Virus record (IMG/VR): IMGVR_UViG_3300022752_000022
Coordinates: 1-64,000 of that record
Length of the DNA: 64,000 nucleotides
Source: a virus
Strand: one strand, 5' to 3'
How positions within the stretch are numbered: the first letter of the stretch is position 1; each line of letters starts with the position of its first letter. Position numbers and translations under genes: made by a program. Positions 53,433 through 61,219 of this stretch are shown here, in pieces. Under the pieces are notes generated by a model. It was not told the DNA's origin and did no database searches. It was given only the letters and a program-made list of their open reading frames with translations.

Positions 53433-54172
53433 TGTTCACACTTCTTCTATTCTTCACCGCTATAGGTATATCAGCGGTTGCAGCGTATTTTTCTATTGTA
53501 GGTTTGATATCAATCTTTACAGCAAGCCCTATAGCAATCGCAATCATGGGAGGTTCACTTGAACTTGGTAAACTTGTCACAGCATCTTTTCTCTATCGGT
53601 ATTGGTATAGTATTCACATTACTTTGCGGATTTACTTCACTACTACTGTTATCATTCTTAGTATCATTACTAGTCTTGGCATTTTTGGTTATTTGTCTCA
53701 GTCTCATTCTGGTTCAGGTGTGGATTATGTTACCAATTCTACAAGAATCGACAACCTTAACGAGAGACTTTCTATTGAAAAAAATAGACTGGAGATTCTA
53801 CTTAAGCAATCTGCTGGATATGCTCAACCCAATCAAAAATTGGAGCGACAAATTTCAGATACGCAGAACAAAATCGAGATTTTAACCAAAGAGATTCTAC
53901 CGCTTAAAGTAGAGAAGAACAAAGGCAATGCTGAAATTGGTGCGATCAGATATGTCGCTGAGTTGATTTATGGTAAGAATGATTTTGATACGATAGAAAA
54001 AGCTGTACAATGGATCATTATTGTGTTAATATGTGTCTTTGATCCACTTGCTATTCTATTATTGATCGCAGCAAATCATACACTTAAAATACGAAATTCT
54101 GGTGTAACAACCATTGAGCCGATTGCAATGGATGAAGAGAAACTGAAAAACGTTACGAAATTTGGAGATTAA
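53432..54172 (+). CDS. Membrane protein with coiled-coil loop
   Basis: Three N-terminal hydrophobic segments (SAVAAYFSIVGL, LELGKLV, TSLGIFGYLS), a coiled coil, and a C-terminal TM (VFDPLAILLLIAAN). Confidence 0.75.
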   Translation: MFTLLLFFTAIGISAVAAYFSIVGLISIFTASPIAIAIMGGSLELGKLVTASFLYRYWYSIHITLRIYFTTTVIILSIITSLGIFGYLSQSHSGSGVDYVTNSTRIDNLNERLSIEKNRLEILLKQSAGYAQPNQKLERQISDTQNKIEILTKEILPLKVEKNKGNAEIGAIRYVAELIYGKNDFDTIEKAVQWIIIVLICVFDPLAILLLIAANHTLKIRNSGVTTIEPIAMDEEKLKNVTKFGD

Positions 54173-54175
54173 TAT

Positions 54176-55072
54176 ATGAGCAATTTTTTCACATCTTTGG
54201 TGGAACAGTTGAAAGATGAAGATACGAAAATTCTTGCGGATGGTGGTGCGTCTGCTGAGTACACTGGTTGTATTGACACTGGATCTTATGCTCTTAATGC
54301 TCTACTTAGCGGTAGTATTTATGGCGGTGTTCCTAATAATAAAGTAACAGCATTTGCAGGCGAATCTGCTACTGGTAAAACTTTTTTTGTCTTGGGTGTT
54401 GTCAAACGATTTTTAGATGATCATCCTGAAGGTGGTGTGATTTACTTTGATACTGAAGCAGCAGTCACCAAGAACATGATGGAATCAAGAGGTATTGATA
54501 CAAAACGTGTAGTCATCTCTGAGCCTGATACAATTCAAAAGTTTAGACATACAGCGTTACAAATTATAGAAAAGTATTCTGCACAGTCTAAAGATAAACG
54601 AAAGCCTATGATGATGGTGCTTGATTCTCAAGGCCAATTATCTTCAACGAAAGAAATGGAAGATAGTTCAGATGGTAAAGAAACACGAGACATGACAAAA
54701 TCTCAGTTGATCAAAGCAACGTTTCGTGTTCTTAATTTGAAACTTGCAAAGATCAATGTGCCACTCATTGTAACGAATCATGTGTATGATGTTGTTGGAT
54801 GTGCATTGGCAGGAACTAAAATTCAAACTATAGACAAATTAAAAAATATTGAAGATATTTTGGTTGGCGATTATGTAAGAACCATGGTTGGAAATAAAAA
54901 AGTAACTCAAACTTTTAAGTATGAGTGTGACCATTATTATGAAATCGAAATGGAAAATAATTACAAATATTATTTGACTGAAGAACACAAATTAATGATT
55001 CAAGATGGAACATGGAAAAAAGTAAAAGATTTAACAGTAGAAGATGTTGTCATTAATGTCGGAACTATTTAA
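54176..55072 (+). CDS. uvsX: UvsX recombinase N-terminal part (208 aa) fused to split-intein N-half (90 aa, 54800-55069)
   Basis: AGESATGKT Walker A, FDTE, VLDS; TNHVYDVVG|CALAGTKI is intein block A and LTEEHKL is block B (TxxH); then a stop. Confidence 0.93.
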   Translation: MSNFFTSLVEQLKDEDTKILADGGASAEYTGCIDTGSYALNALLSGSIYGGVPNNKVTAFAGESATGKTFFVLGVVKRFLDDHPEGGVIYFDTEAAVTKNMMESRGIDTKRVVISEPDTIQKFRHTALQIIEKYSAQSKDKRKPMMMVLDSQGQLSSTKEMEDSSDGKETRDMTKSQLIKATFRVLNLKLAKINVPLIVTNHVYDVVGCALAGTKIQTIDKLKNIEDILVGDYVRTMVGNKKVTQTFKYECDHYYEIEMENNYKYYLTEEHKLMIQDGTWKKVKDLTVEDVVINVGTI

Positions 55073-55681
55073 TATTTTTCTGAGATGAAAATAGGAGTAT
55101 GGTGATTTGTTTGAAGCCTCTCTAATAGAATCATATATGATACCATCAACAGATATTTTCTTAGATTTTGGACTATTTTTTCTTTTAGCAATTTTAGAAG
55201 ATTCTGTTGACATGGCGTTTTTCCATTTATCTGATTTTTTTCTCGCATCAGATAATTTTTGAGACATATTATTTTTTATATAATTTTCTCTCATTAATTC
55301 TCTTAAATTTTCATCAATATGTCTATTTTGAAATTTTTCATTTTTCCAAGCAAGTTTTAATGACTCGGATATTTTTTGCTTATGACTATCAGTAATAATT
55401 TGTTTTTTTCTGGATTCTCGTATCTTATTAATCCATTTTTCTTTTCTGCTTGAATTTAAGAGAAATTTATTAAATCCATTATTAGCTAATAATATGCGTT
55501 CTTCTTCAGTCATTTTTCTACCAGAAAGACATTCCCAAGCAATTTTGTCTTCGATTTTTCTATACTTTTCCCAAAGAATTCTATGCGCTTCTGCGTGTTC
55601 TTCTATAGTTAATTCTACTAAATTCTCTGAATCATCTGATCCACCCATATGTTTTGGGATAATGTGATGAATATGTTTCAT
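55031..55681 (-). mobile_element. Free-standing HNH homing endonuclease
   Basis: HIHHIIPKHMGGSDDSENLVELTIEEHAEAH N-terminal HNH domain; C-terminal ISVDGIIYDSIREAS NUMOD1-like DNA-binding motif; AT-rich. Confidence 0.88.
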
Positions 55682-55715
55682 AGATGTGTTCGTTTTACTA
55701 TATTGTAGACATGAT

Positions 55716-55723
55716 TATTTATA
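55716..55723 (-). promoter_or_regulatory. T4-type late promoter driving the HNH gene
   Basis: + strand TATTTATA = TATAAATA on the - strand, ~35 nt upstream of the HNH start. Confidence 0.75.
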
Positions 55724-55740
55724 AAAAAGGAGTTTTTAAA

Positions 55741-56298
55741 ATGACTAGTGGTTTAAAAATTAAAAACATTAAAAAAATTGAGTGTGAAAATACTTCAGTT
55801 TTTGATTTTGAAGTTGAAGATGCACATCATTATATTCTAGAGGATGGCACAGTATCTCACAATTCTTATGTGCCAACGAAAGAAATGAGTGGTGGTTCAG
55901 GTTTGAAGTATACAGCATCCACAATTATATATCTTTCAAAGAAGAAAGAAAAAGACGGCACTGAAGTGATTGGTAACATTGTAAAAGCAAGATTGTATAA
56001 GAGCCGATTGACTAAGGAAAATAAAGATGTGGAAGTCAAAATCACCTATGACAAAGGGTTGGATCGACACTATGGTCTCCTCGACATCGCAGAAAAATAT
56101 AACATACTCAAAAAAGTATCAACACGATACGAATTACCAGACGGATCAAAAGTATTCGGTAAAGCAATCAACGACAATCCAGAAAAGTATTGGACCAAAG
56201 AACTCCTGGATATGATTGATGAAGTATGCAAGAAAGAATTCATGTACGGTCAACTTAATGAAATACCAGCTGAGGAGTTAGATAATGAAACTGAATGA
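55741..56298 (+). CDS. uvsX: Split-intein C-half (41 aa, 55741-55863) fused to UvsX C-terminal part (144 aa)
   Basis: AAGGAG RBS; [35 protein letters not shown]|[16 protein letters not shown] (intein blocks F and G, then the UvsX continuation). Confidence 0.93.
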
Positions 56299-56593
56299 AG
56301 ATTTTAAAATAACCGACTACGATCACACCGTAGCGAATACCGCAGTTTTAGAATTAATCGGTGGTGTTCATGATGGTGTTAAATTCTATTTCGGTACAAT
56401 GAGCGTTGAAGAAGCTAATGATGAGGGCATTCTTCATTTTGAATATAGCACAGTCGGCGACTATGAAAAGACTTTGACAGAGCAAGACAAAGCTGAGTTT
56501 GACAAAATGATGGGCGATGTAGTATTATCTATTCTTATGGATAACCTTGAAAAAAGAGAACACGAGAATGCGAATCGAAAACAAGATTCTTAA
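56285..56593 (+). CDS. gp40-like head assembly protein
   Basis: Small acidic protein between uvsX and gp41, as in T4. Confidence 0.55.
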
Positions 56594-57956
56594 ACACTTA
56601 CTACTAGACGAAGACTTTACACGCAAAACATTACCATTTCTGAAGAGTGAATATTTTCATGACGGTGCAGACAAAACACTCTTCACACAAATCAACGACT
56701 ATATCATTAAGTATAACACACTGCCTACATACGAAGCATTGGTTATAGAGATTGACAAAAAGAACTTAACCGAATCCTTATACAAAGAAACGATAGGAAG
56801 ACTTGATGAGATTGTTCAGAATAAAGAAACATCTGATACCAAATGGCTCATTGACACAGCAGAGTCCTTCTGTAAAGACAAAGCTGTCTACAATGCTATC
56901 ATGCAAAGTATCCAGATTCTTGACGCAAGTAGTAAAGGCACACTGGACAAAGGGAGCATTCCTACTCTTCTTGCTGACGCTCTATCAGTTGCTTTCGATA
57001 ATCATATCGGTCATGATTTCCTCGATGATGCCGATCCACGGTACGAGTTTTATCATAAAATAGAACAGCGAATTCCTTTTGATCTTGATTATCTGAATCG
57101 CATCACGAAGGGTGGTCTACCAGAAAAAACGCTGAATATTATTTTAGCTGGCACTGGTGTCGGAAAATCCTTGTTTATGTGTCATTGTGCAGCATCTAAT
57201 TTAACTCTAGGCAAGAATGTCCTGTATATTACACTTGAAATGGCCGAAGAACGAATTGCAGAGCGAATTGATGCTAATTTATTGAACATTGATTTAGATA
57301 AGTTGATCGCATTACCGAAAGAATCTTATTTGAAAAAGATAGAACGATTAAGATCCAACACTACAGGTAAACTAATTATCAAAGAGTATCCTACTGCAAG
57401 TGCGAATGTTTCTCATTTCAAACATTTACTCAATGAGTTGAAACTGAAAAAGCAGTTTATACCAGATATCATTTACATCGACTACCTGAATATTTGTTCA
57501 TCTTCACGCATCAAACAAGGATCCAATGTCAATTCTTATACTTATGTCAAAGCGATTGCTGAAGAACTTCGTGGATTAGCAGTTGAAACAAAGGTGCCGG
57601 TGATCTCGGCCACGCAAACCACGAGAGGTGGCTACGATAATTCTGATGTCAGTCTAACAGACACTTCGGAGTCATTTGGATTGCCGGCCACGGCGGATTT
57701 GATGTTTGCTTTGATTTCGACTGAGGAGTTGGCTGATTTGAATCAGATCATGGTCAAACAGTTGAAAAATCGCTACAGTGATCCGACGACAAACAAAAGA
57801 TTTGTCATAGGGGTTGACAGGGCGAAGATGAAGCTGTATGATGTAGAACAAGTGGCTCAGAACGGTTTGATGGACAACGGGCAAGTAGATAAACCAGCAT
57901 TTGACAGCACACCGACGGGCAAGAAGACTTCTAAATTTGATGGTTTTAAGATGTAA
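56568..57956 (+). CDS. gp41: Replicative helicase gp41
   Basis: [40 protein letters not shown] motifs; uninterrupted. Confidence 0.97.
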
Positions 57957-58871: not shown

Positions 58872-59369
58872 ATGAAATTTTTAGAATACATAGCCGAAGC
58901 AACATCAGGCAAAAATCTACATATGGAGCACATTGAGGATAATATTCTCAATGGCGGCGTCTACGGCGCTAGGGAAGCAATCAACTTCCTACGCAAAGTC
59001 CGTGACATGCTTGCGGGCAATTCCGAATCCAAAGTCAATATCACAGTCAAATGGGATGGATGTATCCACGAAGATACAATCGTTCTCACAAATCTTGGTG
59101 ATATGACAATCAAAGAAATAGTAGAGCGATGTCAATGGGACGATAGTCTTATGGTCATGGGCAAGGAATTGGATCTACCATCAAAACCTAATCGCATGGT
59201 TCCTATTTTGGGCGGAATGTTTCAGAATGGAAATAAAAAATGGGTTGAAATTCAACTAGAAGATGGAACAAAATATAAAATGACTGAAGATCATGAGGTG
59301 CATACAGCTAATCGTGGATGGGTAAAAGCATGTGAATTGACTAAAGATGACGATATTACCGAATTATAA
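58872..59369 (+). CDS. KWDG-motif protein (DUF6267-like) N-part (63 aa) fused to split-intein N-half (102 aa, 59061-59366)
   Basis: KNLHMEHIED..ITVKWDG|CIHEDTIV is block A; KMTEDHEVHTANRGWVKACEL is block B; then a stop. Confidence 0.88.
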   Translation: MKFLEYIAEATSGKNLHMEHIEDNILNGGVYGAREAINFLRKVRDMLAGNSESKVNITVKWDGCIHEDTIVLTNLGDMTIKEIVERCQWDDSLMVMGKELDLPSKPNRMVPILGGMFQNGNKKWVEIQLEDGTKYKMTEDHEVHTANRGWVKACELTKDDDITEL

Positions 59370-59403
59370 AGTGTGATGGTAATCATCTCAAAATGTCTTC
59401 TTT

Positions 59404-59411
59404 TATAAATA
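59404..59411 (+). promoter_or_regulatory. T4-type late promoter for the endonuclease and downstream IntC gene
   Basis: TATAAATA followed by an AAGGAG RBS. Confidence 0.8.
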
Positions 59412-59430
59412 AAATAAAAAGGAGAATGCG

Positions 59431-60066
59431 ATGACTGACGAAATGAAAGAAAAGTATATTCAAAAATATAAAGAAACATATTCGGTTTCTGAAATTTTAA
59501 GAACATTCAATGATGGAATTGGAAGAAAAAAAATCATAAATCTTTTAAAGGAAGAAGGTATATACGAGGGATTAAATGGACCAAATTATCTGAAAAAGAA
59601 AGTTGAAAATAATGAAAAAATAATGATGAAAAAATATGGTGTTATTAATTGGGGACAAACAAAGGATGGCGGTTACAAAAGCCAAAATAAAATACCATAT
59701 AAAAAAATATCTTATTTAAATGAAGAATATAAAGAATACAAAAATCAAGTTGAAAAAGAAACAAAACTTAATATAAAAAATATTGATTTACCTGAATATT
59801 GTTTTTACACAGGAATACAATTTGCAGATGTTGAGGGTCCCGTTAATCCGAATGATCCAAGAAAGAGAAGTGTTGATCATAAAATTCCAGTAATTATTTG
59901 TTATTTAAATGGCTTTTCTACAAATCAAGCTAGTGATTTAACTAACTTGATTTTCGTTTTGAAATATGTCAATTCAATTAAATCAAACACTGATCACGAG
60001 TCATTTTTGAAAATAACACATAAGATTAGGGAGGTATTTGTAAATGAGGGTTATAAGAGTAAATAA
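59431..60066 (+). mobile_element. Free-standing HNH-type homing endonuclease
   Basis: C-terminal CFYTG..RSVDHKIPV..DLTNLIFVLKYVNSIKSN (H-N-N beta-beta-alpha motif); KKYGVIN segment; AT-rich; sits between two intein halves. Confidence 0.78.
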
Positions 60067-61219
60067 ATTAGAAGAAAAATATACTCAGTATGATATTAGT
60101 ACGTCATCTAATAATTTTTATGTGCAAACAAATTCCGGTAGATATGTATTGATTCATAATTCTCCAGCCATTTTTGCTGGTCAAGATCCGTCAGACGGTC
60201 AATTCTTTGTTGCAAAGAAAGGCATCTTCAACAAAAATCCAAAACTCTACAAGACGAATGCTGAGATTGATGCAGACACTTCAGGTGATTTAGCAGACAA
60301 ACTCAAAGCATGTCTTCAATACTTGCCTGAAATTGGCATCAAAGGTGTCATCCAAGGCGACTTAATGTATACTCAAAGTGATCTAAAAAATGTAACAATT
60401 GATGGTGTAAAGTATACAACATTTCATCCAAATACCATTGTTTATGCGGTGCCTTATGATAGTGACATTGGAAGAACAATCCGCAATTCAAAAATGGGCA
60501 TTGTATGGCATACTAGATATGAAGGCGATACATTAGAAAATATGAAAGCAGTCTTCGGAACTGATATACTTGCTGGTATGAAAAAGTCTAGAAATGTCTG
60601 GTTTGACAATGCAGATTATAAAGATGTTTCAGGCAAAGCGTCCATGACAAAAGAGGAGACTGCTGAAGTGACAAAGGTGCTATCACAAGCAGGAAAAGTT
60701 TTCAATGCAATTGATGGCCGATTTTTAGATTCGCTTTCAGATTATCCAGGCTTCGGTGAAGAGTTGAATACAAGAATTAAAGCATTCAATAATTCTAAAA
60801 TTAAACAGCGCCAAAAAATTACAAATGTTCATAGTCATGTAACAGAAATGCTTGACGCACTCTTAGCACATTATCAGAGTGAGTTTGATAGCAAGAAAAA
60901 GCCTGATGCAAAGAAACGTGCTGAAGTCAAAGTCAATGCTATCAAAAGTATGATAAAATCAAAATACAAAGTTCAATTTGAACATATCTTTACGCTAATG
61001 AATTTGTTAGTTGACGCTAAAGATATGCTCAGTAAGAAATTAGATGAAGTAAAGAGTGTAAACACATTTTTATTAACCAAATCTGGATATCAAGTCACTG
61101 GTGTTGAGGGTTATGTCGCAATTGACAAATTGACTGGTGGTGCCGTGAAGATTGTAGATAGACTACAGTTTAGTTATGCTAATTTTTCTCCAGATGTAAT
61201 CAAAGGATGGGAGAGATAG
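60044..61219 (+). CDS. Split-intein C-half (39 aa, 60044-60160) fused to DUF6267-like C-part (352 aa)
   Basis: GGAGGT RBS; MRVIRVNKL..QYDISTSSNNFYV..VLIHN|SPAIFAGQDP..FFVAKKGIFNK..QGDLMY..FHPNTIVY..EGYV..VKIVDRLQFS. Confidence 0.88.
   Translation: MRVIRVNKLEEKYTQYDISTSSNNFYVQTNSGRYVLIHNSPAIFAGQDPSDGQFFVAKKGIFNKNPKLYKTNAEIDADTSGDLADKLKACLQYLPEIGIKGVIQGDLMYTQSDLKNVTIDGVKYTTFHPNTIVYAVPYDSDIGRTIRNSKMGIVWHTRYEGDTLENMKAVFGTDILAGMKKSRNVWFDNADYKDVSGKASMTKEETAEVTKVLSQAGKVFNAIDGRFLDSLSDYPGFGEELNTRIKAFNNSKIKQRQKITNVHSHVTEMLDALLAHYQSEFDSKKKPDAKKRAEVKVNAIKSMIKSKYKVQFEHIFTLMNLLVDAKDMLSKKLDEVKSVNTFLLTKSGYQVTGVEGYVAIDKLTGGAVKIVDRLQFSYANFSPDVIKGWER

Follow-up and report, generated by a model that had tools for sequence, protein, structure and literature searches.

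We analysed the first 64 kb (hereafter the window) of IMGVR_UViG_3300022752_000022, a complete 149.6-kb viral record with direct terminal repeats, in which the recombinase gene uvsX is interrupted by a split intein whose two halves, IntN and IntC, flank an HNH homing-endonuclease gene on the opposite strand. We consider it probable, at roughly 85 %, that this is a mobile cassette in which UvsX is restored by protein trans-splicing and the HNH enzyme drives homing. The source is an uncultured T4-like phage, marked as such by the presence of DNA polymerase, UvsX and a gp41-type helicase. Its closest isolates at the DNA level, OM43 phage Melnitz and Pelagibacter phage HTVC008M, both carry a contiguous recA/uvsX gene. 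In a map of the window's open reading frames (ORFs), every credible gene lies on the plus strand except the HNH gene.

Anatomy of the interrupted uvsX gene

Three ORFs make up the locus (Table 1). The first (54176–55072, plus strand) encodes 298 residues, 208 of UvsX followed by 90 of IntN, and the third (55741–56298, plus strand) fuses the 41 residues of IntC to the 144 of the UvsX C-extein, such that the joined exteins amount to 352 residues (208 + 144). The cassette comprises 1,064 bp (54800–55863) between uvsX codons Gly208 and Ser209, with junction codons GGA|TCT. This bears out the first-pass annotation, which had read the locus as UvsX residues 1–208 ending in NHVYDVVG and continuing into a 90-residue IntN and a stop codon, an opposite-strand HNH gene (55031–55681) overlapping the 3′ end of IntN by 42 nt, and a 41-residue IntC ending in VSHN and fused to the remainder of a 352-residue UvsX, with the same GGA|TCT junction. 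Pfam placed RecA and Intein_splicing on both uvsX halves (profile positions 27–93 in the first and 122–155 in the second); the PF14890 matches to the two intein halves, at 27.6 and 15.4 bits, are under the gathering score of 35.8. PHROGs named the halves UvsX-like recombinase and the middle ORF homing endonuclease (phrog_655, E = 1.5e-19). The domain matches on all three ORFs argue that the arrangement is not a product of chance.

The reconstituted recombinase aligned in full with a known UvsX. The N-extein matched residues 2–207 of the solved contiguous phage UvsX 9gbg (E = 2e-75) and the C-extein residues 208–334 (E = 1.3e-55); none of the UvsX motifs is disrupted in the comparison with 9gbg, and the two exteins together cover the whole enzyme end to end. 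In about 55 IMG/VR relatives with empty alleles, the N and C parts adjoin without a gap. One such relative, L004 (related loci are given L numbers throughout), is collinear with the window at ~93 % nucleotide identity and is missing precisely the 1,064-bp insert (54800–55863), its contiguous UvsX being 98.6 % identical to the N-extein and 96.5 % identical to the C-extein. The first ~170 nt of uvsX (window 54176–54350) differ from L004 by ~17 %, against ~5 % in the remaining gene, a step that may mark a recombination boundary inside the N-extein. In an alignment to Escherichia coli RecA, the insertion site falls ~10 residues N-terminal to the GG in TGGNALKF, which we take to place it in the DNA-binding loop L2 of RecA.

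An interrupted gene could be a dying one, in a phage that uses another recombinase. The interruption itself is what favours this explanation, but the exteins of fractured alleles are under strong purifying selection, with a ratio of non-synonymous to synonymous substitution rates (dN/dS) of 0.05–0.10 among the less saturated pairs, to which all such ratios given here refer. The intact UvsX motifs and the retention of the layout in about 25 independent contigs likewise oppose it, making the decay of uvsX extremely unlikely. For the intein halves themselves, dN/dS was 0.11–0.19 (IntN) and 0.02–0.13 (IntC).

The intein carries the complete class 1 set of splicing residues, namely block A Cys1, the block B TxxH, the block F Asp and His, the block G His-Asn and a +1 Ser. 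C1, T60 and H63 of IntN were invariant in six diverged homologues, and D22, H29, H30, H40 and N41 of IntC were likewise invariant together with the +1 Ser, the cassettes compared being only 45–60 % identical. The +1 residue is Ser in every occupied allele, whereas the 54 close empty alleles mostly have Ala (49, with Ser in the other 5), which indicates that the nucleophile codon travels with the cassette. The solved structure closest to IntN was that of the gp41-1 split intein (6qaz, E = 2e-4), and the IntC homologue of L002 begins at the same Met as that of the window. Modelled as a complex with ESMFold2, IntN and IntC gave an interface score (ipSAE) of 0.69, compared with 0.00 for the best of three controls, and so passed a mark that 58 of 80 solved complexes and 2 of 110 mismatched pairs attain. 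Runs shared at least 96 % of contacts, the predicted local distance difference test (pLDDT) of the partners was at least 74, and the interface comprised ~215 contacts. Since split-intein complexes have already been solved, this pass signifies likeness to them rather than binding. Residues 35–55 of IntN have a net charge of −4 and residues 2–14 of IntC one of +3, and the two stretches touch in the model. An Rfam scan of 53500–57000 at E ≤ 1 returned no match, group I introns included, and a group I intron or other RNA element in the gap was rejected on that basis. The abutting exteins, the invariant residues, the +1 Ser, the model and the lack of an Rfam intron all lend support to the initial proposal that UvsX function would depend on trans-splicing.

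The extensive predicted interface could also serve a simpler role, in which the intein halves only hold the UvsX pieces together non-covalently. Split genes can work unspliced: according to the introduction of PMC2677866, Aeh1 nrdA is split by mobE without an intein and the two-piece NrdA works. Here, in contrast, the break does involve an intein; each of its catalytic residues is conserved at the divergence noted above, and the +1 Ser moves with it into a position where empty alleles mostly have Ala. Moreover, DNA binding would probably suffer if a 131-residue HINT domain stayed in the L2 region. We therefore judge non-covalent assembly to be very unlikely and retain trans-splicing as the preferred reading.

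Table 1. Coordinates of features at the uvsX locus and at a second interrupted gene in the window
Feature	Position	Strand	Basis or remarks
uvsX N-extein, 208 aa	54176–54799	+	Walker A GESATGKT; C-terminal end NHVYDVVG; RecA Pfam and phrog_97 matches
IntN, 90 aa then TAA	54800–55072	+	Block A C1 (CALAGT); block B T60-x-x-H63 (LTEEHKL)
Free-standing HNH homing-endonuclease gene, 216 aa	55031–55681	−	PF01844, PF20987, phrog_655
Convergent 42-nt overlap, 3′ ends of IntN and HNH genes	55031–55072		From coordinates
TATAAATA box, T4 late-promoter consensus	55716–55723	−	34 nt upstream of the HNH ATG
Shine-Dalgarno AAGGAG	55727–55732	+	8 nt ahead of the IntC start codon; read from sequence
IntC, 41 aa	55741–55863	+	ATG at 55741; blocks F and G, block G being VSHN
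uvsX C-extein, 144 aa then stop	55864–56298	+	First residue is the +1 Ser
DUF6267 (PF19782) N-terminal part with IntN	58872–59369		Profile positions 1–47, ending ...VKWDG; IntN CIHEDT...TEDH
211-aa ORF, HNH-like	59431–60066	+	...DHKIPV...N... motif; no Pfam match; TATAAATA 19 nt upstream
IntC with DUF6267 C-terminal part	60044–61219		...LIHN|S; profile positions 48–373

Recurrence and mobility of the cassette

The cassette with its antisense HNH gene was found in about 25 viral and metagenome contigs. IMG/VR carriers of this layout were L002/L003, L066–L074, L150 and L153, and it was also present in 15 of 15 metagenome contigs found by an IntN profile, two TARA Oceans scaffolds included. Wherever enough sequence was present, the HNH gene was antisense in every related locus that has one. 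Five metagenome proteins carried an IntN 89–91 % identical to that of the window, with N-exteins 86–89 % identical. Because the genome is metagenome-derived, an assembly artefact, or an inversion specific to this record, might be suspected; against this, the same orientation, overlap register and conserved spacer occur in independent contigs of many samples, and the 149.6-kb genome is complete with terminal repeats, so we assign such an explanation a practically negligible probability. One allele (L143:915–4264) has a split intein at the same uvsX site with no HNH gene and a gap of 56 nt, which indicates that the intein persists without the nuclease. The P-loop of the neighbouring gp41 helicase of L143 (597 aa) is interrupted by a contiguous mini-intein (AG|C...HN|TGVGKS).

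A comparison of L066 with L073 revealed that nucleotide identity rises abruptly at the insertion junction. Within the cassette, identity was 93.5 % for IntN, 96.5 % for HNH, 96.2 % for the spacer and 89.4 % for IntC, whereas it was 78 % for the N-extein, 80 % for the C-extein and 68–70 % for the flanking genome. Cassette identity so far above extein identity indicates, at the level of sequence comparison, that the cassette is moving horizontally among relatives and has done so recently.

Further interruptions were noted in related loci and in the window. In L073 and L074 (also L158), the uvsX C-terminal ORF holds a pair of inteins separated by 11 residues: first, at the site of the cassette (site a), the split intein and its antisense HNH gene, then a contiguous 132-aa mini-intein at GGG|SGLKY that is homologous to the split intein of L005. 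In L153 (416–3937) uvsX is in three pieces, as the site-a cassette with its antisense HNH gene is accompanied by an atypical split after the Walker A motif GESSTGK, with a very short IntN, several small ORFs and a long IntC. Given two split inteins in one uvsX, two trans-splicing events would be needed in this phage. A second fractured gene is present in the window itself, 2.6 kb downstream of uvsX (58872–61219; Table 1). There, a DUF6267 gene is divided by a cassette whose nuclease gene is on the same strand as both halves. Together, the DUF6267 and uvsX loci give a phage with two split-intein genes, one containing a sense and the other an antisense nuclease gene.

The antisense HNH gene

The nuclease ORF starts MKHIHHIIPKHMGG, and its motif HIHHIIPKHMGGSDDSENLV...EEHAEAH aligned with the HNH of the group II intron maturase 6me0. 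PF01844 (HNH) scored 22.4 bits against a cut-off of 21.4, and PF20987 (I-TevI DNA-binding domain) matched the C-terminal part at 22.3 bits, below its cut-off of 27. Residues H5, H6, N20, H29 and H33 and the start MKHIHHI were invariant among homologues, and dN/dS for the gene in relatives was 0.17–0.32. No second copy was found elsewhere in the genome. Free-standing antisense homologues, 42–45 % identical, were identified directly upstream of an intact uvsX in L075–L077 and L082. In L075 and L077, this free-standing antisense gene lies between uvsX and a 371-aa ORF (L075:3347–4462, L077:2481–3596); DNA polymerase is present there only as this separate C-terminal ORF, which starts just before QLNSAYG and suggests that gp43 may be split in both.

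The overlap between the IntN and HNH genes is in a fixed register, since 55031 − 54176 = 855 = 3 × 285 and the same codon triplets are therefore used in both frames. Overlaps of 33–39 nt occur in L002, L070 and L073, every length being a multiple of three. The free-standing homologues in L075 and L077 lack the last ~9 residues, which correspond to the tail encoded opposite the end of IntN in the cassette. Because the overlap is always a multiple of three and the tail has no counterpart in free-standing homologues, the 42-nt overlap looks like a run-on of the nuclease frame into IntN and not a designed feature.

The TATAAATA box ahead of the HNH gene is one of 14 copies in the 64-kb window, compared with 6.1 ± 2.5 expected; 12 are on the plus strand, and 8/12 of these sit 9–58 nt before an ORF start. 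The box recurs at the same place before the HNH gene in L002, L066, L070 and L073, while the remaining spacer differs. The 59-nt spacer between HNH and IntC (52–59 nt across the family) contains both this box and the Shine-Dalgarno sequence of the C half, and GAGG/GGAG equivalents of the latter are present in the same four loci. A search for intrinsic terminators between the uvsX halves gave a single weak match, within the HNH gene. A hairpin sequestering the ribosome-binding site in the HNH leader, a feature described for other phage endonuclease genes, was considered for the window and rejected (fold of −1.2 kcal/mol, z = +1.2); in L066 and L070 a small inverted repeat is present in this leader. 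Late, restricted expression is the rule for free-standing T4-type homing endonuclease genes (PMC2988022; PMC2677866), and phage homing-endonuclease genes are typically expressed late, as summarized for mobE in PMC2677866.

From sequence and modelling we infer protein trans-splicing, the activity and target of the HNH enzyme and the use of its late promoter, and we propose the following course of events. The two uvsX polypeptides would be made separately, the C half from its own ribosome-binding site. IntN, through its acidic central strand, and IntC, through its basic N-terminal strand, would associate and rebuild the HINT fold, in which trans-splicing by Cys1, the Thr and His of block B, the His-Asn at the end of IntC and the +1 Ser would yield the 352-aa UvsX. 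The HNH gene probably has a T4-type late promoter of its own. Its product would nick or cut, near the GGT|GCT junction, intein-less uvsX alleles of phages infecting the same cell, and recombinational repair would copy the entire cassette into the cut allele, along with the Ser codon required for splicing. As to origin, a free-standing nuclease gene already targeting uvsX may have entered a mini-intein backwards at the endonuclease-domain position, thereby splitting the intein; the free-standing homologues adjacent to uvsX and the overlap pattern fit the gene-breaking model of Dassa et al. (PMC2677866).

Several observations weigh against this account. A fold search with the HNH protein gave no significant match, the best being the I-TevI DNA-binding domain (1i3j, E = 0.16) and I-HmuI (1u3e, E = 0.5), and its structure model is weak (pLDDT 68, predicted template-modelling score 0.29). 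The protein also lacks ~48 N-terminal positions of the phrog_655 profile, the HH motif coming 3 residues after the start. No promoter for the C half was found, the plus strand having only one 7-of-8 match to TATAAAAA and weak sigma-70-like matches. Finally, maximum-likelihood trees do not show transfer between the phage clade of the window and a distant one. The HNH genes give a tree consistent with that of the exteins, whereas the intein tree, in which the window and L002 sit on long branches, is unresolved. Identity matrices had suggested such a transfer, the window's IntN and IntC seeming closer to the distant clade than to L002, but the trees do not support a conflict. With no cross-clade transfer in the trees, the evidence for mobility of the window's own cassette is its presence here and absence in L004.

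The N-terminal truncation relative to phrog_655, the low-confidence fold model and the lack of a significant fold match, together with the HNH-less allele of L143, would also be compatible with a split intein that works whilst the HNH protein is no longer the engine of mobility, being inactive, domesticated or directed at another target. Set against this, the catalytic residues and the MKHIHHI start are invariant, and the start three residues before the HH pair is kept in all homologues, the free-standing ones included. The dN/dS values likewise point to a gene under constraint, the HNH genes of L066 and L073 are 96.5 % identical in phages whose exteins are 78 % identical, the upstream TATAAATA box is conserved and the free-standing homologues adjoin uvsX. 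A retired nuclease thus appears clearly unlikely, and an HNH enzyme that still drives homing of the cassette remains our preferred interpretation.

Whether the inverted orientation is functional rather than accidental is a separate matter, and on balance we think it doubtful. In its favour, the HNH gene is alone on the minus strand in 64 kb, is antisense throughout this cassette family, and has its conserved late-promoter box in a divergent spacer shared with the ribosome-binding site of the C half. If the orientation were functional, it would guard against early production of the nuclease by read-through transcription and translation, and the late HNH mRNA would be complementary to any uvsX transcript that crosses the cassette. 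Transcriptional interference or RNA duplex formation might then link the timing of the nuclease to the supply of the UvsX C half.

Comparison with known systems and implications

Fractured genes were described by Dassa, London, Stoddard, Schueler-Furman and Pietrokovski in 2009 for gp41-1 to gp41-9, NrdA, NrdJ, IMPDH, DnaE, ligase and terminase (PMC2677866). The first-pass annotation had matched the present locus to this architecture, which proved right for the broken gene, the IntN/IntC pair and the free-standing nuclease, but not for the strand (antisense) or the nuclease type (HNH). As in those systems, an enzyme gene is divided into two ORFs with IntN and IntC in frame and a free-standing endonuclease gene between them, the break is at the usual position of the endonuclease domain, and the interface strands are oppositely charged. 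Sizes are also comparable, IntN and IntC being 88–105 and 33–54 aa in PMC2677866 and 90 and 41 aa here, and both sets include an endonuclease-less allele (gp41-7 there, L143 here). In contrast, uvsX is not among the eight host types of PMC2677866, where it is mentioned just as a gene next to fractured gp41. The nucleases of that study belong to the GIY-YIG or Vsr-like types, HNH being merely predicted, and all three coding regions share a strand, the endonuclease gene following a short non-coding spacer, whereas here the nuclease gene is HNH, inverted and in convergent 42-nt overlap with the end of IntN. The locus is therefore a known fractured-gene layout whose host gene, nuclease type and orientation go beyond PMC2677866.

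An endonuclease gene on the opposite strand within intein-coding DNA has parallels among contiguous inteins. Those with an antisense or out-of-frame endonuclease go back to Gorbalenya 1998, as cited in 10.1101/2025.01.02.630785 and 10.64898/2026.09.14.751524, and the explanation offered in the latter two is that a free-standing endonuclease gene invaded a mini-intein. As presented in these sources, such inteins share the opposite-strand placement with the present cassette but differ in that they are contiguous, the sense frame reads through, and their nucleases are LAGLIDADG or Vsr-like.

Fractured uvsX genes are also carried by cultured Straboviridae, namely Escherichia phage HY03 (KR269718, L133), Proteus phage Pm5461 (KP890823, L134) and Shewanella phage Thanatos-1 (MT457552, L135). 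These, and L005, share with the window the host gene, a homologous IntN (~41 % identity) and an endonuclease gene between two ORFs; unlike the window, they have the insertion 11 codons downstream (...TGG|T/S...) and the endonuclease on the same strand. The nucleases at this downstream site are Seg-like GIY-YIG, as annotated in Thanatos-1, and HNH in L005. In GenBank, the uvsX halves of the three cultured phages are labelled 'RecA-like recombination protein' or 'hypothetical protein', with the intein unmentioned. The earlier examples of split inteins in UvsX of environmental phages that the first reading had invoked could not be traced; PMC2677866 has UvsX only beside gp41. More broadly, our literature search, which left subscription journals mostly outside and so does not prove absence, turned up no publication on a split intein in uvsX.

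A free-standing phage endonuclease tied to uvsX is also known in SegA, a GIY-YIG enzyme encoded between uvsX and beta-gt that cuts uvsX (PMC2988022; PMC2677866). The likeness extends to L075–L077, where an HNH homologue sits beside an intact uvsX; the difference is that SegA is GIY-YIG and intergenic. The UvsX recombinase is itself required for homing (PMC2988022).

In sum, these results add uvsX, whose product drives recombination-dependent replication and homing itself in T4-like phages, to the genes with a predicted need for natural protein trans-splicing. The locus extends the fractured-gene model of 2009, including its prediction that HNH genes could fracture genes (PMC2677866), and the antisense case indicates that invasion of a mini-intein by a free-standing nuclease gene can occur in either orientation and that the gene can persist there. 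uvsX emerges as an intein hot spot with at least three sites (P-loop, VVG|S and GG|S), and some phages would need two splicing events to complete the enzyme. The family comprises diverged, small split inteins (~90 + 41 aa, with Ser at +1) that are related to gp41-1 and are candidate protein-ligation tools, and the sister cassette in cultured coliphages offers a tractable system for studying their biology.

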